A stretch of 64,000 bases of DNA. Origin: Alphaproteobacteria bacterium. GTDB lineage: Bacteria > Pseudomonadota > Alphaproteobacteria > RF32 > CAG-239. The stretch spans positions 688 through 64,687 of the forward strand of contig JAEEYV010000046.1 of assembly GCA_016288295.1 (NCBI GenBank). The letters run 5' to 3'. Numbering within the stretch: position 1 is the stretch's first letter; each line of letters starts with the position of its first letter. The position numbers and the translations under genes are program-made. Shown here piece after piece: positions 232 to 8,947 of the stretch. Under the pieces are notes generated by a model. It was given only the letters and a program-made list of their open reading frames with translations, was not told the DNA's origin and ran no database searches.

Positions 232-1194
232 TCAATTTATTTTTGTCAATTTTTCTAAAAACTCCCTTAAAGCACCTTCGTCTTTCCATCGTATTTCGAT
301 TTCCAGCACCTTAAAATTCGGCTTCAGCTTGTTAGGGATTTTTACAAAATCTTTAGCGGTGGTAACCAAGTCGGCACCAAGTTTTTTTGCCAACGCAATC
401 AAATCTTCCAACTCTTTAGGCGTATAATAGTGATGATCCGGAAAATCAAAAGTCTGCACCACATTAGCCCCGCACTCTCTCAACGAATTATAAAACTTCT
501 CCGGTCGCCCGATGCCGGCAAATGCAATAACTTTTGACCTCAAATCCGGCAAGGGCAGGGAACAAATTTGCCCCTCAAACACCGGCATTCTGCCCAATTT
601 TTCACGCAATCCGCATTTGTCCTCGCCAATAATAATTGCCGCATCGGCACGTTTTATTCCACTTTTAAAAAACTCACGTAACGGACCTGCCGGCACCGGC
701 AATCCGTTGCCGGTACCCACGCCGCCGTCAAACACCAAAAACGATAAATCTTTGTACAACGTCGGGTTTTGAAAACCGTCATCCATAACAATAACTTCCG
801 CCCCGTTGCTGATTGCCTTTTTGGCCGCTTCGGCACGATCAGCGTTGATAGAAACTTTTGCCTCCCTTGCCAACAACAAAGGCTCGTCCCCGACTTGTTG
901 CGGAGTATGTTTTTGCACGTCAACCATTACGCCGGACAATGTTCCGCCATATCCTCGTGATACAAAAAACGGCTCTTTTCCCAAAGATTTTATGATTTTT
1001 GCAATTGAAACCGCAGTCGGAGTTTTTCCGGTTCCGCCGGCTGTCAAATTGCCGATACAAATCACCGGCACATTGACCTTTGTCGGCTTTTTGAGTTTAA
1101 GTCTCAACGTGGTCATACCGGCATAAACACACCCCAAAGGCCACAAAGCCAATGCGCATAAGTTTTTATTTTTCCAATGTGAGGGCGTTCTCAT
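232..1194 (-). CDS. lpxK: tetraacyldisaccharide 4'-kinase (lipid A biosynthesis)
   Basis: 320 aa; P-loop ICIGNLTAGGTGKTP typical of LpxK; overlaps waaA stop by 4 nt (operon). Confidence 0.85.
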   Translation of the reverse strand: MRTPSHWKNKNLCALALWPLGCVYAGMTTLRLKLKKPTKVNVPVICIGNLTAGGTGKTPTAVSIAKIIKSLGKEPFFVSRGYGGTLSGVMVDVQKHTPQQVGDEPLLLAREAKVSINADRAEAAKKAISNGAEVIVMDDGFQNPTLYKDLSFLVFDGGVGTGNGLPVPAGPLREFFKSGIKRADAAIIIGEDKCGLREKLGRMPVFEGQICSLPLPDLRSKVIAFAGIGRPEKFYNSLRECGANVVQTFDFPDHHYYTPKELEDLIALAKKLGADLVTTAKDFVKIPNKLKPNFKVLEIEIRWKDEGALREFLEKLTKIN

Positions 1195-2459
1195 TCCGGC
1201 AAATAACTCCGTACCTTGTCCATAATACCGTCCAAAACTTTGGCCTCGGACATTGCCCAGTTATAGGCCAAACTGCGCTTGGCCTCCAACAGCTCCTTAT
1301 TGCTGAGCAATTGTCGTACATTATCGGTCAAATCCAACACATCATTAACCTGAATAACCGCATCAGCTTTTTTGGCACGATTGATTGCATCGGTAAAGTT
1401 ATGCATATGCGGACCGACAATCACCGCATCACGGCAGCGCGACGGTTCCATAAAGTTTTGCCCTCCGTGCGGAATAAGCGATCCGCCGATAAACACCAAC
1501 GGGCAGATGCCATACCAAATACCCAATTCTCCGATTGTATCGGCAATATAAACATCAGTATAAGGTCTTATTGGTTCTTCTTTTGAACGCAAAGAAGTTT
1601 TGAGCCCTAATTCTTTTGATAAACGCTCCTGAATTTCAACACCACGGTGCGGGTGGCGCGGGGCAATAATCAACAGCAAATCTGGAAAGTCTTTTTTTAA
1701 CTCATTATGAAATTTGCTGATTTTGAACTCCTCATCATCGTGAGTGGAGCTGGCCAACCAAACCGTACGCCCGTTAATCTGCTTTTCAATCTCGGCTTTT
1801 TTCTCCTCATCAACCGGTAATGGCAGACCGGCATATTTCACATTGCCCAGACAAATCGCTTCCTTTGCCCCCAACACGCGCAGGCGATAAGCATCTTCGT
1901 CAGACTGCCCCAAACAAAACGTAAAGCATGACAACAACTCTTTGCATATAAAATCAAACTGCTGCCAACGTTTGAACGATTTGTTTGAAATACGACCGTT
2001 GACCAAAATCAGCGGAATATTTTTGCGCTTGATTGAAGATAACATTGCCGGCCAAAAATCTGATTCGAACCACAAAATTGCATCAGGGTGCCAATGCTTT
2101 ACAAAACGCGTGGTAAATACCGGATTATCAATCGGGATATATTGGTGAAAAGCCCTTTCCGGCAGGCGTTTGTCCATCAATTCGGCAGAGGTCAGCGTGC
2201 CTGTTGTTACCATAACATGCGAGTCCGGATAAGTATCTAACACACGGTTAATCAACGGCAACATAGAAAGAGATTCGCCGACCGAAGCCCCATGAAACCA
2301 AAACAACTTTCCCTCTGGGCGTTCTTTTATCGGGCGACCGATTCTTTCATTAAAACGCTTCAAATCTTCTTTGCCACGCTCTTTGCGCTTTTTAATATAG
2401 CGACTGATAACAATCGGATACATAATCCTGATTAATGTGTTGTAGACTTTAATAAACAT
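1191..2459 (-). CDS. waaA: 3-deoxy-D-manno-octulosonic acid (Kdo) transferase
   Basis: 422 aa; KdtA/WaaA-type motifs (FWFHGASVGE, glycosyltransferase GT30 fold length); adjacent to lpxK as in many alphaproteobacteria. Confidence 0.85.
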   Translation of the reverse strand: MFIKVYNTLIRIMYPIVISRYIKKRKERGKEDLKRFNERIGRPIKERPEGKLFWFHGASVGESLSMLPLINRVLDTYPDSHVMVTTGTLTSAELMDKRLPERAFHQYIPIDNPVFTTRFVKHWHPDAILWFESDFWPAMLSSIKRKNIPLILVNGRISNKSFKRWQQFDFICKELLSCFTFCLGQSDEDAYRLRVLGAKEAICLGNVKYAGLPLPVDEEKKAEIEKQINGRTVWLASSTHDDEEFKISKFHNELKKDFPDLLLIIAPRHPHRGVEIQERLSKELGLKTSLRSKEEPIRPYTDVYIADTIGELGIWYGICPLVFIGGSLIPHGGQNFMEPSRCRDAVIVGPHMHNFTDAINRAKKADAVIQVNDVLDLTDNVRQLLSNKELLEAKRSLAYNWAMSEAKVLDGIMDKVRSYLPE

Positions 2460-3256
2460 TATTTTTGTTCCTTACGTTTTTTTGTTTTTGCGGTAACGCC
2501 TGGCTCAATTTTTGGTAGTTTAAGAACTTGATCTGCTCGCAATGTCAGTCCGTTCAATTCGTTTTCAATTTCTTGACGGTATTTTTCCAAATCCTCATCA
2601 GTTGCATCTGCCGGAATATAATATGGTTTTGTAACATGCACAATTCCGCGACAAAATGGCAATGGAATAAGCATTGCATCCCAACTTTTTGCAACAATAG
2701 AATGTTCAATAGAATATGTTGCTCCAAATAAGGGTTTTCCTGACTTTTTTGCAAAATATAGCGGACTCATATTCATTTTCATTCTTGGACCTCTCGGACC
2801 GTCGGGAATAATTGCTATGGCTTGATTTTTTTCCAAAGAGCGCAAAAGATTTATAGCTGCGGCGTTGGCGCCCTCGTTGGTAGAGCCGTCAATAATACCG
2901 AAACCGACTTTTTTCAAAAACGATGCGGCAATTCTCCCATCGTTATGCGGCGAAACCAGGGCATTGAGCGGTCTTTTTTTGTTCCAAAAATACGGAATCA
3001 TCAACACACGCCCATGCCAGATAGTAAGTATAAGAGATTTTTCTTTTTCCCATACTGGATAAAAACGATTTACGCCGAATATTTCCCAATGTGTGGTTTT
3101 CCACACCATTAAGCAATAATAATACATTGCTTTTCCGACAAAGGTGGTAAAAGCTTCAGATTTTGTTATATTTTTGATTAAATGTTTGATATTTTTGCGA
3201 ATTGTTTTAGCTATTTCAATAGCTTTTGTGCAAAAAATTTTAATCTCTTTTTTCAT
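2459..3256 (-). CDS. DUF374-type lysophospholipid acyltransferase-like protein
   Basis: 265 aa; WHG and PDGPRGP motifs of LPLAT/DUF374 proteins that commonly sit upstream of waaA. Confidence 0.6.
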   Translation of the reverse strand: MKKEIKIFCTKAIEIAKTIRKNIKHLIKNITKSEAFTTFVGKAMYYYCLMVWKTTHWEIFGVNRFYPVWEKEKSLILTIWHGRVLMIPYFWNKKRPLNALVSPHNDGRIAASFLKKVGFGIIDGSTNEGANAAAINLLRSLEKNQAIAIIPDGPRGPRMKMNMSPLYFAKKSGKPLFGATYSIEHSIVAKSWDAMLIPLPFCRGIVHVTKPYYIPADATDEDLEKYRQEIENELNGLTLRADQVLKLPKIEPGVTAKTKKRKEQK

Positions 3257-3407
3257 CGATATCTCTATAAAAAATATATATCATCACCCTTAATAGTCAT
3301 AGCTATATCACACTTTTTACAAAAACTAAAGTATTTTAATACTTATCAATATTTTTTTTGCTTGACAGTAAAAATGTTGTCATATATAAAACCTATCCAG
3401 ACAGATT

Positions 3408-3483
3408 GCCGACATAGCTCAGTTGGTAGAGCTACTGATTTGTAATCAGTGGGTCCGCGGTTCGAGTCCGTGTGTCGGCACCA
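3408..3483 (+). tRNA. tRNA-Thr (anticodon TGT)
   Basis: Cloverleaf read by hand: acceptor GCCGACA/TGTCGGC, D-arm GCTCAGTTGGTAGAGC, anticodon stem ACTGA/TCAGT with loop TTTGTAA, T-arm CGCGG-TTCGAGT-CCGTG, encoded CCA. Confidence 0.85.
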
Positions 3484-3487
3484 TTAA

Positions 3488-3515
3488 AAAACCTCCCTGA
3501 ATGGGAGGTTTTTTA
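3488..3515 (+). terminator. rho-independent terminator after tRNA-Thr
   Basis: Hairpin cctccc-tgaa-tgggagg followed by T-run. Confidence 0.7.
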
Positions 3516-3650
3516 ATGGTTGTGATATAAAAACTTCTCGAACCGCGGAAATAGTGGTTTGGGTTCAAGCGAAAGGCAGGCGGGAGCATGCCGGTCGATT
3601 TTTAGTCGATGAGCGCAGTAGAACGAGCATTGCGAAGCAATGTCGAGGAC

Positions 3651-3667
3651 AGTCCGTGTGTCGGCAC
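3651..3667 (+). repeat. 17-bp direct repeat of tRNA-Thr 3' end (att-like)
   Basis: agtccgtgtgtcggcac identical to tRNA positions 3465-3481; lies in GC-rich degenerate repeat. Confidence 0.7.
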
Positions 3668-3724
3668 GCCAACATAAATCCCTTTTTCTAAATTTTTAGA
3701 GTAACCCCATAATAAAAACAAAAT

Positions 3725-3975
3725 GTCATCTCTCGTTTTCGTTAGAAAACGTCCAGTGATCTACAACTTTTTTTAAAAATATTGAAGCAGTGCAAAGCAC
3801 TGAAGCCGAGATTCCTTGACGCACGGACGCGCCGCGCCATGCGAGGAATGACATTTCTAGACAGTCATCCCTCGTTTTGCCTGCAAAATCGTCCAGGGAT
3901 CTTCCTTGTTTTCTTTAAAAAATATTGAAGATGCCTTGACCTCGGACATTAGTCCTCGGAGGCGTGACAAGTTGT
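3725..3975. repeat. two tandem imperfect ~140-bp direct repeats
   Basis: Units beginning gtcatc(t/c)ctcgtttt...gtccag(t/g)gatct...aaaaatattgaag at 3725 and 3864; each with internal cgtttt/aaaacg stem-loop. Confidence 0.55.
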
Positions 3976-3986
3976 TTATTGTCATT

Positions 3987-4024
3987 TAAAAAACAGAAAG
4001 ACGGCACTATGTGTCGTCTTTCTG
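3987..4024 (-). terminator. rho-independent terminator for the 4038-4988 gene (bidirectional-looking)
   Basis: Hairpin cagaaagacg...cgtctttctg flanked by A-run and T-run. Confidence 0.65.
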
Positions 4025-4037
4025 TTTAATGGTGGGC

Positions 4038-4988
4038 TTACCAACCGCAAGATAAAGCTGTCCTTGCCCCGGTTTTATCTTCATATGAATAACGATTACC
4101 AGGGTACTTGTCTAAGAACTCCAGCATCTTTTGCCTGCTAGTTTCAGATAATTTGTAAAAGACCCTAGCCAGCGCACGATCCGGGCAGAACTTCTCCACA
4201 TGCTTGAGAGCTATTTCGTTGACGGTCTCGTTTTCAGGAGAGAACTTTTCAATAAGCTTCTCGAAAACATCATTACCCAAGCTGTGTCCTCTCCCAATAT
4301 GAGTTAACATCAGATCCCGGATGTCAGCTTCCTCAAACTCATCAACAATCATGAGCCAAACGCTGTTAAAAATTGAGCTGTACCAATACTTCATTAATAT
4401 TTCTTTGGCATCGGCGTGTTCAAAGAATTTGACAATGTTTGTTTGGGTTGACTCGTACAGCGTTTGTTGTCCATGAATGTTCTTCAAAATAGCAACTCGG
4501 TCAATCATAAATGAGCTGAAGAGCTTTTTCAAGATTGCTTCAGAAAGTGTGCGATTAGGAACGAGAGCTAACATCCATTCATTAGCCAAAGCGCGGTTCT
4601 TCCAATCCAAGATCTTGTTCCAGATAGTATCATCTACCCGATAGTTGTTACCATACGCCAGGAGAAGATCTTTGATTTCGTCTTCCGGGAAGTTAAACAC
4701 TCGCTCAAGTTTAACATCGGCGTCTTTGAGTGCAACAATGTAGATCCTTTTACGGATTGCCAGCGGGAGCTTGTCTACATCATCCCAGGACATAACTTGC
4801 TTCAGATCATAACTATTATTTGAATTGAATATCGCCTCAATGACGTCGACAACCTTGTCCCGTACAGTAGAATCGTTCGTTTTGAGTAAATCAACGATCA
4901 TGGAAAGTGTCAATTCACTAAGCTTAACACCACCTCTAATGAACTTGAGCATATTGTCAAGTTCGGAGAGAATTTGTTCGTTTGTCAT
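4038..4988 (-). CDS. hypothetical protein (316 aa), no recognisable family
   Basis: Long ORF with own upstream AT-rich region; C-terminal R-x5-H (RDLMLTH) motif noted; no homology recognised. Confidence 0.55.
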   Translation of the reverse strand: MTNEQILSELDNMLKFIRGGVKLSELTLSMIVDLLKTNDSTVRDKVVDVIEAIFNSNNSYDLKQVMSWDDVDKLPLAIRKRIYIVALKDADVKLERVFNFPEDEIKDLLLAYGNNYRVDDTIWNKILDWKNRALANEWMLALVPNRTLSEAILKKLFSSFMIDRVAILKNIHGQQTLYESTQTNIVKFFEHADAKEILMKYWYSSIFNSVWLMIVDEFEEADIRDLMLTHIGRGHSLGNDVFEKLIEKFSPENETVNEIALKHVEKFCPDRALARVFYKLSETSRQKMLEFLDKYPGNRYSYEDKTGARTALSCGW

Positions 4989-5101
4989 ATTAAAATGGTT
5001 TAATAATTTATATGTAATTGAGTTAACAAGCGCATACTAGCATATTATTTGTCAAGTGTCAATAGTTTTTGTCGAATCACTTTGTGCAAGTTCTTAAATA
5101 T

Positions 5102-5138
5102 AAACAAACGCTCGCCGGGTTAGGGCGAGCGTTTGTTT
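5102..5138 (-). terminator. rho-independent terminator after the 5149-5601 gene
   Basis: Hairpin aaacaaacgctcgcc...ggcgagcgtttgttt. Confidence 0.6.
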
Positions 5139-5148
5139 ATATGTACCG

Positions 5149-5601
5149 TCAGCGCTTGAACCGTTTTGGCGGTATCACATAATACGGCGTGGGCTTCGTC
5201 GCGCCGTTCAAAGCGGCATCATTAGCGGCTCGGAGTGCAGGATTGAGAAAATTCGGTAGATTGCCACTCCATTGGTCATCAGCGAAATTAGCAATCTGCT
5301 TCGCTTCTACATATTCCCAGCCTTTGGTAACTTTGGTGATCATGTAGACACTAGCCTCCTTGATTTCCAAGCTTCCGGTGTCGGAACAACGAGCTGTTGC
5401 GTAAATTACGTAATATCCTTCTGCGATTGGAACAATCGCATAATACGGCAACTTATTTTTAGGTGTCATATAAACGGCTTTGGGCTTACTACCATCTGCC
5501 TTGCAAATTACGACAACATCATCCCCTGAAATGTTACGGCATTCTGCTAATGCAGTGAGCCCGCTTCTTGTGATACGTGCACAAAGTTTTGGTGTTTCCA
5601 T
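5149..5601 (-). CDS. hypothetical protein (150 aa)
   Basis: ORF; no homology recognised. Confidence 0.5.
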   Translation of the reverse strand: METPKLCARITRSGLTALAECRNISGDDVVVICKADGSKPKAVYMTPKNKLPYYAIVPIAEGYYVIYATARCSDTGSLEIKEASVYMITKVTKGWEYVEAKQIANFADDQWSGNLPNFLNPALRAANDAALNGATKPTPYYVIPPKRFKR

Positions 5602-5941
5602 AATGTCTAAAATTTGTAAATAATTTGATTAATAGTTGTTTTGTTCTTCACAATATATCATATTTTTTTGGACATTGCAAGCAAAAATTTGTCAATTATT
5701 GTAAAAAATATCCAAAAAGGTAAAACGTATCATTTCTTATTAAGTTCGAAATTTTATTCAATCTCAGTTTCCGCAATAAAAAATATAATATGAAAAAGAG
5801 AGTAAATTTAATCTTGCAATCAAAACTATAAACACACTATAATACACTCAAATTTTAACAAAATCGGAGCAACAGAATGATGAATTTTCTTAATTAAGTG
5901 TACCTAATTTATAATAACAAAAGTAATTATATACAAAAATA

Positions 5942-5970
5942 TAGACATATTCTTCATTTTGTGTTACAAT
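5942..5970 (+). promoter_or_regulatory. sigma70-like promoter for the 611-aa gene
   Basis: -35 TAGACA, 17-bp spacer, extended -10 TGtTACAAT; RBS agagggg before ATG 6002. Confidence 0.5.
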
Positions 5971-6001
5971 CGTCGTTGTACATTTACATAGAGGGGAATT
6001 T

Positions 6002-7837
6002 ATGTTTGATTTTAAGAGTCAAGAATATCAATATAAGCAATATCAGAGATTGTTAGCCAACTGGGACTACATGTTTGCTCAAAGGTGGAAATCTTCTCAT
6101 CGCTACTTTGATGAGCAAGAAATAAAACTTATTGAAGATAGTGAGTTACCAACCTCCTCAATGATTGCAAAAAGGATTTATATAACCTTAAACACAGAAA
6201 AACGTTCAGCAGAATATCTTGAAATGCTTGGAAATTTGTCTTCGAGATCCGCACAAGAACTTGAAGAAGCAGAAAAACTATTGCCTGAGTTTACAAAATT
6301 TATAACCGATAATAATTTAGACGGTGAACAGACATTGAGATTAAAAACAGTTTTTCCGCATATTGTGGGCTGTTTTACCATCTTAAAAAGAGAAGAAAAA
6401 GACTTTCCCTCATTTACTGAATTTTTGATCCCGTTGAATAATATCTTACAAAATCTGGAACAAACACAATATAACAATCAAACACGTACCTTTGCAAACT
6501 ATTTGTTTGATCAGGAAAACATTAAGCCAAACAAAAACATTACGGCTTTCAAATTACAACTATTAAAGCATGCCAGCAAAAAAACAAATAATTGCTCAAT
6601 ATTAAACCATTTGTGCAATGATTTCAGATGTTATTTTAGGGTTTTTCCTGAAACAATCAATTCAGAGTTTTTAAACAATTATATCAATTATATAATTCCA
6701 CGTTTCGTAAAAGGAAATGATATTTTCGGCATACAAAGCAATAAATGGGGATGTGCGCGTGGTAAAGGAATTGCTTGCGGGGTTGGTGCTGCCACTTACG
6801 CTTATAAATGCTATGCAACACGAATTACTCCTTGTGGTATTAATGATTTATTGCAGATGTCTTATGAAGTTTTGGGTGGAAATCTGTCAAAGCATGAAAA
6901 AATCAGAAAAGACGCACTTCTGCTTAATAAATGGTTTCCTCGAGACCCTATACATGACAGCACCCCCGGGGTTAACGAAATCATCAATAAAATGGTTGCA
7001 TATTATGATGCCCCCGAGGATCAGAAAGATGTGGCTTTATCAGAATTAACAAAAGTCGGCCAAAGAATAAATATGTGGAAAACTATTTATGACTTGCCCA
7101 AATATGATGAAATTAGTTCAAGAAGTAATGAAAAACATATAGATATATTACGACGAATAAAAAATAATATGTCACAGAATAATGTAGAAGTTCCTATTAC
7201 CGAAAATGATGAAATTAATTTTTTAGCTCAAAAAGCAAATAAAAAAGATCATCCAACTCTGTCATCAATGCTTCCGCTCATTCAAGCACTTAATCATACA
7301 ATGTTAGAAGCAATTGATAAAAAACAAACCGGTTTTTCACCGGAAATGGTCAACATGATAGCCTGGGCAGATCGACAATTGGCTCAAGCCGTTAACAATA
7401 TGGATTTTGAAAAACAGATGGGCTTTTATAAAGAAAACGATTGTAAATGTGTTTTACTTTTTAGTGAATTGACACACTCTGCAAAAGAAGAATTTAATTG
7501 CCAAGAATTTGATGATTTTTATGAGCATAAAGTCAAACAAGCTTTCGATATGGAACAGGCGTATATAAATATTGCCAATCGTCAAAATCAAAACTTATTA
7601 GGCTTGTATGATCAGTATGACAGATACTGTCACGCCATGGACGATACAGATAATGCAAAGACTATGATATTAGCACGTAAAGAAAGAGCAGGATCAGGAA
7701 ATACACTTAAAGCTCTTCAAAATCTCACTCTATATAAAGAGCCTTCTACAATGGTAGGAAAAAGAGAAAAAGCTGAAAGAGAAAAAAGATTTCCATATAG
7801 AGATTTTTTAATGAGACCTTCTTCCAACCAAAGATAA
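6002..7837 (+). CDS. large hypothetical protein (611 aa), possible secreted effector or papain-like Cys peptidase
   Basis: Isolated by ~400 bp AT-rich spacer and own promoter/terminator; Cys/Gly motif QSNKWGCARGKGIACGVGAATYAYKCY; no family recognised. Confidence 0.6.
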   Translation: MFDFKSQEYQYKQYQRLLANWDYMFAQRWKSSHRYFDEQEIKLIEDSELPTSSMIAKRIYITLNTEKRSAEYLEMLGNLSSRSAQELEEAEKLLPEFTKFITDNNLDGEQTLRLKTVFPHIVGCFTILKREEKDFPSFTEFLIPLNNILQNLEQTQYNNQTRTFANYLFDQENIKPNKNITAFKLQLLKHASKKTNNCSILNHLCNDFRCYFRVFPETINSEFLNNYINYIIPRFVKGNDIFGIQSNKWGCARGKGIACGVGAATYAYKCYATRITPCGINDLLQMSYEVLGGNLSKHEKIRKDALLLNKWFPRDPIHDSTPGVNEIINKMVAYYDAPEDQKDVALSELTKVGQRINMWKTIYDLPKYDEISSRSNEKHIDILRRIKNNMSQNNVEVPITENDEINFLAQKANKKDHPTLSSMLPLIQALNHTMLEAIDKKQTGFSPEMVNMIAWADRQLAQAVNNMDFEKQMGFYKENDCKCVLLFSELTHSAKEEFNCQEFDDFYEHKVKQAFDMEQAYINIANRQNQNLLGLYDQYDRYCHAMDDTDNAKTMILARKERAGSGNTLKALQNLTLYKEPSTMVGKREKAEREKRFPYRDFLMRPSSNQR

Positions 7838-7849
7838 AAAACAAAAAGA

Positions 7850-7878
7850 CCACCGGATTTTACTCCGGTAGCCTTTTT
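7850..7878 (+). terminator. rho-independent terminator
   Basis: Hairpin accggattttactccggt then T-run. Confidence 0.6.
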
Positions 7879-7898
7879 GCAATTAGTGCATAATCGCG

Positions 7899-8333
7899 TT
7901 AGCAATACCCATCGTCGTCGTCCCATGGATCTTCTTTTTTTCCTCTGGGATCACGTAAGCCCATGCCTTCCATTTCCCTAGCAGTATAAATCCGTGGTCT
8001 TGTCCGGCGAGTCTTGGAGTTTTTTATTATTCCTAACCGTGATATAAGCACCCCCAATAAGGCAACCCCGAAAACAAACCACGATGCCGTTGTCGCGGTA
8101 CCAATGAGAGAATAGATAACCTCAATACCAGCAATCCAAATAAAAACCATAGTAACCGAAAGCTTCAACCGCCGCTGATATTTTTGCTTTAATTCCGGAT
8201 CTGTGGTTGAGGCGAATGTTTCTGGATGTTTCTTCCAGAAATAATACAACACACCCAACAGGTAAACCACAAACAGCACAGCCCAAATCACAAGATAAGG
8301 CTTTGCTTCTAAAGTTATTTCTTTCATACGCAA
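7899..8333 (-). CDS. hypothetical membrane protein (144 aa, ~3 TM)
   Basis: Hydrophobic segments; acidic C-terminus. Confidence 0.5.
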   Translation of the reverse strand: MRMKEITLEAKPYLVIWAVLFVVYLLGVLYYFWKKHPETFASTTDPELKQKYQRRLKLSVTMVFIWIAGIEVIYSLIGTATTASWFVFGVALLGVLISRLGIIKNSKTRRTRPRIYTAREMEGMGLRDPRGKKEDPWDDDDGYC

Positions 8334-8475
8334 TAATATTTTAGGTTGTTAATAATTTTTCTACAATAATCGTAACTTTCTAGAACAAACTTAAATAAAA
8401 AATCTGTTGGAGTCAAGTGCTATAGCCAAACAAAAAGCCGAGGATATCCTCGGCTTTTTCTACACAATCAATAAT

Positions 8476-8862
8476 TTAGTATCTGGAAGGAACCATTACG
8501 GTCGGACCATAGTATTTTTGAGCTCTCGGAGCATATCCGTTCATAGGAGCATATCCGTTTACGCTTTGTCTTTCATAAGCAACATTTTGGAAATGTCTCG
8601 GTTCATAAACAGTACCATAGGTAGTACGTTTATAAACAACTTCAACAGGCTCGCGAACAGTACGAATTTCCCCTTGGCAACCGCTAGGAGTATAATTACC
8701 GCAGTTATAAGAAGGTTGAGCAACAGCAACCGGAGCCGGAGCAGGAGCAACAACCTCTTCTTGGCAATCACCTTCCATATCGCAGTCGTAGCCATAAGCA
8801 CAAGCAGAAACTGCTAAAACAGCACCAAACAATACAAACAATTTATTCATTTTCATCCCCAT
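8476..8862 (-). CDS. Cys-rich lipoprotein (128 aa)
   Basis: Signal peptide with lipobox VSAC; PAPAP and NGYAP repeats; 6+ Cys. Confidence 0.5.
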   Translation of the reverse strand: MGMKMNKLFVLFGAVLAVSACAYGYDCDMEGDCQEEVVAPAPAPVAVAQPSYNCGNYTPSGCQGEIRTVREPVEVVYKRTTYGTVYEPRHFQNVAYERQSVNGYAPMNGYAPRAQKYYGPTVMVPSRY

Positions 8863-8947
8863 CTTGTAGTTAATGTTAAGTACAAACTAAAACAACTTTC
8901 TTAATTTAAACTTAACAAAGCACAAAATTTAAATATTTCTCAGGTAT

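Follow-up and report, generated by a model that had tools for sequence, protein, structure and literature searches.

Downstream of the tRNA-Thr gene in a 64,000-nucleotide stretch of DNA from an uncultured alphaproteobacterium (contig JAEEYV010000046.1; the whole stretch is referred to as the window) lies a 17-bp duplication of the 3' end of that tRNA, which an initial annotation had read as the footprint of site-specific integration at the edge of a decayed genomic island carrying five open reading frames (ORFs; O1–O5). Our analysis supports that interpretation in part: the repeat is real and meaningful, yet it does not mark an integration scar around the ORFs. The reading we favor, and hold to be probable, is that positions ~3521–3667 constitute one unit of the tRNA-linked repeat (TLR) class described in Escherichia coli and that O1–O4 form a separate, recombination-prone accessory patch. 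The 17-bp repeat that resembles an attachment (att) site is the built-in, tRNA-identical tail of the TLR unit, because the unit runs through an antisense copy of the tRNA, a hairpin and a core and then closes with the tRNA's own T-loop-to-3'-end sequence. The tRNA gene and the parts of the unit, all on the + strand, are as follows (L001, L002 and so on are labels of the loci and contigs compared with the window).

3408–3483, +: tRNA-Thr(UGU), called by ARAGORN and scoring 71 bits with the Rfam tRNA model; its last 19 nt define the repeat
3480–3520, +: terminator hairpin with 18-nt perfect arms, beginning inside the ACCA end of the tRNA (inverted repeat I5)
~3521–3667, +: one TLR unit, supported by the covariance model R1, the family alignment with its covariation, and repeats D5 and I18
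3537–3549, +: part 1 of the unit, the stretch of 13 nt that is exact within an otherwise decayed antisense version of the tRNA 3' half (I18)
3540–3546 with 3554–3560, +: part 2 of the unit, hairpin H1
3569–3571 with 3614–3616, +: closing helix of the core
3575–3581, loop GGGA, 3586–3592, +: hairpin H2 of the core
3596–3599 with 3607–3610, +: hairpin H3 of the core
3627–3643, +: variable hairpin of the unit
3651–3667, +: tail of the unit, the tRNA-identical 17-mer (D5)

The 17-mer, AGTCCGTGTGTCGGCAC, occurs exactly at 3465–3481, within tRNA-Thr from the T-loop to one base short of CCA, and again at 3651–3667. The match that the initial annotation reported is thus real, with a chance expectation of 0.01. 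No third copy is present in the 64-kb window with up to 3 mismatches allowed, and the sequence is found twice in the window and once per relative, so the notion of a generic, dispersed repeat was rejected. The geometry does not agree with a footprint that bounds the ORFs: the pair encloses just 169 bp, and all five ORFs lie beyond the distal copy. The 5' half of the T-arm has, in addition, a 13-nt exact inverted copy (3454–3466 versus 3537–3549; I18), which had gone unmentioned in the initial annotation.

Evidence that these pieces belong to a single element comes from other tRNA genes. A BLAST search with the window spacer led to three tandem sites adjoining a homologue of O3 in L039/L040. 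In L039, three 181-bp units come after tRNA-Pro(CGG), and every one of them consists of the tRNA-Pro tail, the tRNA-Pro terminator, the inverted 5' half of the T-arm and a core that is 75–81% identical to window 3539–3619; the parts that match the tRNA are retailored to each tRNA and the core is common to the units. A scan of metagenome contigs with the core pattern left ~40 loci with true units after filtering. The covariance model R1, built from the family alignment with the window unit included in it, gives at least 42 strong matches (≥59 bits) in 33 of 100 metagenome loci, scores the L039 units at 78–86 bits, and has exactly one match in the window (3525–3624, 86 bits, E 2e-22), with none near the window's other two tRNAs.

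The position and the anatomy of the units are constant. The core starts 75–93 nt past the end of a same-strand tRNA wherever there was sufficient upstream sequence, apart from one locus at 229 nt, and at least 14 kinds of tRNA have a TLR behind them: His, Glu(CTC), Glu(TTC), Val(GAC), Val(TAC), Lys(CTT), Pro(CGG), Ser(UGA), Ser(CGA), Gly(GCC), Gly(CCC), Met and Asn, plus Thr in the window. The parts come in a fixed sequence: the tRNA 3' half in decayed antisense form, next a short loop, the sense 5' strand of the T-stem with UUCGA(C), the ~95-nt core, and then AAUC with the 3' strand of the T-stem, the 3' strand of the acceptor stem and CCA. The core is therefore placed at a split of the T-loop, after its fifth base. 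In 22 of the 27 loci with a tRNA in view the tail equals the last 16–19 nt of the upstream tRNA, mostly 19 nt, and in most loci a copy of the tRNA terminator comes after it. Two or three tandem units, spaced at 174–189 bp, are found in L051, L054, L069/L039, L075, L114, L144 and L152. Beside the units, no protein family, recombinase or other, turns up again from one genome to another; an association of O3 with the TLRs was considered and rejected, since O3 adjoins units only in L039/L069. As a separate observation, two different genomes share a segment of ~60 nt, GCAAGGAAAGCGACAGC.ACCGC.GCGA..., inserted in or next to their TLR units: in L058 (reverse strand) it lies between tRNA-Lys and the TLR core and in L133 downstream of the TLR.

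The fold of the element was evaluated by testing four helices on 27 distinct units. Paired cells amounted to 87%, as against 25–47% in controls with slid partners, and ten pairs showed changes on both sides, in 45 cells, a result reached by none of 500 shuffles. RNAalifold, unaided, gives the same four helices. The G-U pairs lie on the tRNA-sense strand, and the consensus of H2 is GGCR-GRC-GNRA-GWA-YGCC. Together these data point to the ~95-nt core as a predicted three-way junction in which two hairpins covary and a third is variable.

The tyrT gene of E. coli is followed by 178-bp repeats. The E. coli tyrT/tyrV region, as read by us, has three units, composed of antisense GGGGAAGGATGAGAAGCTTCG, sense AAGGTTCGAC, the core, GAGUAAUCC and a 19-nt tRNA-Tyr tail, and the Rfam RtT model scores the three at 134–138 bits. 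These elements belong to the class named tRNA-linked repeats, of which 22 units are recorded at ten E. coli loci with 1–5 per locus, and all of which end in 18–19 bp shared exactly with the tRNA or rRNA gene ahead of them (PMC8144298); the E. coli members, including the 178-bp repeats of tyrT and RtT RNA (rttR), go back to Egan & Landy 1978 and Rudd 1999 (as cited in PMC8144298). Like them, the units in the window and its relatives closely follow a same-strand tRNA gene (in the window the unit begins right behind the tRNA-Thr terminator), have a 3' end equal to the last 18–19 nt of the tRNA (17 nt in the window, where CA is missing), and are ~175–190 bp long and often tandem (1–5 per locus; one in the window). 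The internal layout is likewise shared, with an antisense 3' half (GAUUCGAAC -> GAUGAGAAC-like), the sense 5' strand of the T-stem plus UUCGAC, a core, and ..GUAAUCC plus the tail. Unlike the E. coli TLRs, the units described here have a core sequence that differs from RtT and serve at least 14 tRNA species, the host being an uncultured alphaproteobacterium of gut or rumen origin; the window copy in addition has neither CCA nor a terminator of its own. We assign the window unit to the TLRs by definition, and within them to a new sequence family, not to RF00391, because it shows every positional and anatomical feature of the class while the cross-matches of RtT and R1 fail.

If the precedent applies, the unit would be transcribed by read-through of the tRNA terminator, and its transcript would be trimmed at the tRNA-like 3' end by tRNA-finishing enzymes, releasing a small stable RNA. 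Transcription with the tRNA and processing to a discrete RNA have been demonstrated for E. coli rtT and for RrA, RrB and RrF (PMC8144298), the TLR-family small RNAs behind the E. coli 5S rRNA genes, which may serve as a model for possible expression of the window unit. RrA, RrB and RrF differ in that they bind Hfq and CsrA through GGA motifs, and TLRs of tRNA operons score <0.01 for CsrA binding and are without known function (PMC8144298). A 2024 preprint gives the mode of action of rttR as unknown.

The copy in the window is not intact. It lacks the final CA and its own terminator, and its tail breaks off after GGCAC, exactly where foreign sequence begins. An 82-bp piece (window 3583–3664, with most of the second 17-mer) is missing from L001 and from L043–L046, contigs of near-identical strains found by exact-protein look-ups, and the homologous copies there give truncated 30-bit matches to R1. 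The non-coding DNA behind the tRNA is nonetheless 95–97% identical over 374 nt in these relatives, as against 77–78% protein identity for O1. The window copy thus looks partly decayed, with CCA and terminator gone and the 82-bp deletion in the copy of the near-identical strains. In L002 (7270–7400) and L003 (7275–7400), a degenerate antisense piece, CCGAACCGCAG, and the right junction, GCACGCCAAC, are kept behind tRNA-Thr, with a different sequence of ~135 nt in the place expected for the TLR core; it may be another core type or a replacement. Rfam has nothing beyond tRNA to offer for the stretch 3521–3667. A two-piece or permuted tmRNA was rejected, as ARAGORN reports no tmRNA and the order of the parts is wrong, and so was a hammerhead or other small ribozyme, an idea prompted by GAUGAG/CGAAA motifs: at E up to 10 no ribozyme family of Rfam matches, and the junction strands are incompatible with a hammerhead core.

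Several results weigh against the TLR reading of the window unit. The Rfam RtT model (RF00391, gathering threshold 45 bits) has no match in window 3380–4100 or in L051 at E up to 5–10, and R1 applied to E. coli is not significant (E 0.44); homology of the core to E. coli RtT by covariance model was accordingly rejected, being non-significant in both directions. Kinship with the E. coli TLRs therefore rests on shared anatomy and short motifs, with no significant alignment. The covariation of H1 could be a by-product of copying and is not independent evidence of a fold, because its antisense and sense arms are both copied from the local tRNA; H2 and H3, which vary independently of the tRNA, are the only independent evidence of a selected fold. 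Pairing between the antisense copy and the tail is only modestly better for cognate than for non-cognate combinations (-12.4 versus -9.7 kcal/mol, p = 0.003). Finally, the window unit is truncated at its 3' end and its homologue in L001 and L043–L046 is internally deleted, and it may be functionless here.

Recombinase-bearing elements in the relatives bear on whether such tails act as DNA. In L094 (7612–11250), tRNA-Glu(CTC) and the TLR are split apart by a 3.6-kb insert that encodes DUF2924, a large serine recombinase and a 271-aa ORF; each junction has the 7-nt repeat ATCACCA. In sibling loci, which have no insert, the distance from tRNA-Glu to TLR is 87 nt. In L036 (1690–14411), tRNA-Trp and a TLR-like unit stand on either side of a 12.5-kb element that encodes a large serine recombinase, a REP_ORF2-G2P (Rep-like) protein and an O3 homologue. 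The direct repeat at the flanks of this element (145 nt, 81%) begins with the T-loop-derived AAUC and matches the tail of the TLR-like unit plus ~125 nt downstream to the tRNA-Trp tail plus its downstream sequence. The same 25-nt sequence is found past the CCA of tRNA-Glu in L094 and past the CCA of the TLR tail in L058. In relatives, serine-recombinase elements do integrate at tRNA 3' ends. They resemble the window locus in the kind of site, directly past CCA, and in unannotated cargo that includes an O3 homologue, and differ in that the window has no recombinase and no junction repeat: tblastn with two serine recombinases found no large serine recombinase in the whole window, and, as the initial annotation had stated, there is no integrase by Pfam among the ORFs scanned (2.4–11.9 kb). 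The L094, L036 and L058 cases leave a possible DNA-level role for TLR tails as landing sites and account for the variability of such loci. They do not make the 17-mer pair of the window an island boundary, because there is no recombinase and no further copy of the tail there.

That the TLR units act as DNA, as minimal or left-over attachment regions or as tRNA-tail landing sites, and that the accessory genes entered through the unit in the window, is conceivable but rather unlikely. One core adapted to many tRNAs must have spread between tRNA loci, and the L036 element with its 81% repeat, the ATCACCA junctions that separate tRNA-Glu from its TLR in L094, the 25-nt sequence common to L094 and L058, and the break of the window tail at the start of foreign sequence would all fit such a role. 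The L094 element, however, clearly used the genuine tRNA end, with the TLR a bystander; most units have no recombinase nearby; serine recombinases need only a 2-bp overlap, which leaves the 19-nt tails and the antisense copy unexplained; covarying hairpins with G-U pairs suit RNA better; and the window has neither a recombinase nor a second junction.

The island proposed originally, in which the 17-mer pair would be attL and attR of a tyrosine-integrase element in tRNA-Thr with the five ORFs as cargo and the mobility genes lost, is improbable. The likeness to tRNA-anchored islands with integrase-made repeats is genuine, with a tRNA at the edge, a duplicated 3' segment and variable accessory genes nearby; the duplicated segment, T-loop to 3' end, has the extent that is left behind by many integrases that target tRNA genes, the downstream gene content varies by species, and an O3 homologue sits in a recombinase-bearing element beside tRNA-Trp. 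The geometry largely refutes it, since the copies enclose 169 bp, the ORFs lie past the distal copy and there is no third copy. The two copies of the repeat also enclose a conserved structured element, one that recurs behind at least 14 tRNA types without integrases; O5 is core, near-identical strains share the layout, and composition is mixed. A one-off local duplication or a chance match is hardly credible. There are two copies in the window only, and the second is missing from the closest relatives; yet the chance expectation is low, the window unit reaches 86 bits against a model drawn from units at other tRNAs (the window unit being among those in the alignment), and the relatives' truncated 30-bit copies show a deletion and no primitive state, so that the family evidence refutes this explanation.

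The features between the TLR unit and the MatE gene, together with the junction upstream of tRNA-Thr, are as follows.

3343–3346, unstranded: junction at which hydF–hydE are missing between DUF374 and tRNA-Thr
3721–3862, +: u1, a structured non-coding unit with the closing stem GUCAUC../..GAUGAC; fold z -3.1 (+ strand) and -5.3 (- strand)
3863–3985, +: u2, a structured non-coding unit related to u1 over its first ~69 nt; fold z -4.6
3991–4027, unstranded: hairpin resembling a bidirectional terminator, between u2 and the O1 3' end (inverted repeat I7)
4038–4988, -: O1, 316 aa, predicted armadillo/HEAT-like helical solenoid
5149–5601, -: O2, 150 aa, with the motif IC[KA]ADGS ... PYYV
~5708–8430, unstranded: AT-rich segment with O3 and O4 that has no counterpart in the sister species L001
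6002–7837, +: O3, 611 aa, predicted all-helical
7899–8333, -: O4, 144 aa, predicted membrane protein
8476–8862, -: O5, 128 aa, lipoprotein-like

Loci for the comparison of gene order were collected by a scan for the DUF374 protein with one genome per species, which gave 35 loci from metagenome-assembled genomes of uncultured Alphaproteobacteria, Rhodospirillales or "Azospirillum", originating from rumen, animal-gut and human-gut samples where the record states a source. The three closest, L001–L003, share the order PepP, thioredoxin-like protein, PilT-like ATPase, MatE, O5, a gap and tRNA-Thr, followed by hydE, hydF, DUF374, WaaA and LpxK; the initial annotation had correctly placed the block between the lipid A genes and a MATE transporter, as it lies between DUF374/WaaA/LpxK and MatE. 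What fills the interval from tRNA-Thr to O5 differs: L001 is limited to an O1 homologue (77%) and a 129-aa relative of O2, L002 has a glycosyltransferase and a small membrane protein, and L003 additionally has LuxS, a PHP-domain protein and a 168-aa ORF. O1–O4 are absent from L002 and L003 and O3–O4 from L001, and the full layout is present in the near-identical L043–L045.

Variation extends to the near-identical strains. L043–L046 have the same layout as the window, with 99.8% DNA identity in the right flank and 99% in O3, and keep O3, O4 and O5 at 99–100% overall; they differ in O1, at 78% protein identity, and in the position of O2, which holds the 129-aa protein of the L001 type. The stretch from the TLR to O2 thus exists as two alleles, a window type and an L001/L043 type. 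Most of O4 is lost in L044. In L043 (6933–7367), O3 and O4 are separated by an extra O2-like gene (144 aa, 42% identity with O2) that the window lacks, and the O2 family seems to expand and contract locally.

To judge from gene order, the stretch between tRNA-Thr and O5 is a plasticity zone, and O1–O4 are best described as an ordinary strain-variable, recombination-prone accessory patch between two anchors, tRNA-Thr/TLR and O5–MatE, a patch built from an allelic O1–O2 cassette and an AT-rich O3–O4 insertion. The O3–O4 part behaves like mobile cargo and O5 is core. Of the decayed island with a cargo of five ORFs, then, the plasticity zone and the insertion-like O3–O4 segment stand, and the inclusion of O5 and a bounding repeat do not. 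Comparison of relatives at the same site, which the initial annotation had proposed as a check, gave a divided answer, in that near-identical strains share the gene order, sister species carry other genes, and composition is mixed.

The compositional description of the block held in places. Against 38.5% GC in the window, O3 has 33% and the spacer at 5602–6001 has ~27%, so these are indeed AT-rich, but O1, O2 and O4 are slightly GC-rich (41%, 46% and 43%); among the spacers said to be unusually long and AT-rich, that one, of 400 bp, is the only long one. Codon use of O1, O2 and O4 is mildly atypical (z -1.7 to -1.9), and the core genes lpxK and waaA behave likewise for third-position GC (GC3). 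As to the individual promoters and terminators said to lie in the spacers, the block has 24 promoter-like sites versus 17.1 ± 4.0 in shuffles and 8 terminator-like sites versus 4.4 ± 2.1, no clear enrichment in either case.

The other side of tRNA-Thr is variable as well. A 2.3-kb pair of [FeFe]-hydrogenase maturase genes, hydF and hydE (HydF domains; Radical_SAM+BATS; L001 7585–9912), lies between DUF374 and tRNA-Thr in L001–L003 and in further relatives, is cleanly missing in the window and in L043, L044 and L046, and has no copy anywhere in the 64-kb window. Versus L043, the left flank of the window (232–3256, lpxK–DUF374) has 95.8% DNA identity and the right flank 99.8%, with LpxK at 94% and WaaA and DUF374 at 100% protein identity, a mosaic of divergence within one species-level group; versus L001 the pattern is reversed, at 89.6% on the left and 74.6% on the right. 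From these identities, the tRNA-Thr locus looks like a recombination breakpoint.

Between the TLR unit and O1 lie u1 and u2, described originally as two tandem repeats of ~140 bp. They are related units, but measure 142 and ~123 nt and are common only over the first ~69 nt, at 75%; the tandem-repeat program TRF makes no call for them. Each is closed by a GUCAUC/GAUGAC stem, and a hairpin covaries between the copies (UUUUC/GAAAA versus UUUUGC/GCAAAA). In L001 and L043–L046 u1 is 97–99% identical, and u2 is 96–98% identical in relatives, while the next gene is at 78%. A single u2-related copy is found at another locus in L002 (14862–14938). Possible identities for the units are a small RNA and a miniature mobile element. 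A further hairpin element, GAUUCCUUGACG...CGAGGAAUGAC, occurs in unrelated loci (window 3808–3852, L057 2101–2145, L160 135–179 and L039 101–144), and its outer stem covaries (AUUCC/GGAAU versus AUUU/AAAU).

The five ORFs exist and, as the initial annotation held, are without a recognizable family, with no meaningful Pfam, NCBIfam, PHROGs or PADLOC match. For O1, only three homologues were found, at 78% identity, and its allele differs from that of the near-identical strains; its model (pLDDT 83) matches designed armadillo repeats in Foldseek at E ~4e-5 with low TM scores. O2 belongs to a small, fast-diverging family and is replaced by the 129-aa relative in L001 and L043. The O1/O2 pair changes together between near-identical strains, a pattern that would be expected of antagonistic or self/non-self systems. 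O3 represents a widespread unannotated family of 217 clusters and gives a confident model with no structural relative in the PDB; homologues lie at unrelated loci of other genomes, one of them inside the serine-recombinase element of L036. On inspection by eye, O1, O2 and O3 have no obvious signal peptide. O4 is 99% identical in L043, mostly deleted in L044 and absent from L001–L003. O5 stands beside the MatE gene in all close relatives, with 65–89% identity in L001–L003, and is by this conservation a core gene and not island cargo. The protein part of the locus is of ordinary interest, consisting of strain-variable unannotated genes, of which the O3 family is sizeable.

A duplicated tRNA tail alone is no evidence of an integration event. 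It is possible, but quite doubtful, that TLRs are widespread self-propagating, tRNA-programmed elements that spread by copying keyed to the universal T-loop and whose tails seed plasticity zones as extra landing sites; if so, TLRs would be no mere curiosity of E. coli, and patches of the O1–O4 type would have been seeded by tRNA-like tails. The E. coli TLRs have been known since 1978 and have no accepted function or origin (PMC8144298). What is new here is the TLR anatomy with a different, covarying core in distant, uncultured gut and rumen bacteria, and it provides a comparative data set for structure and mechanism, with a conserved junction and variable tRNA-matched arms. The main lasting value of the locus lies in this TLR family, which adds a variant with structural support to a long-known and still unexplained type of element, and its occurrence suggests that what is maintained is the design and not one enterobacterial sequence.

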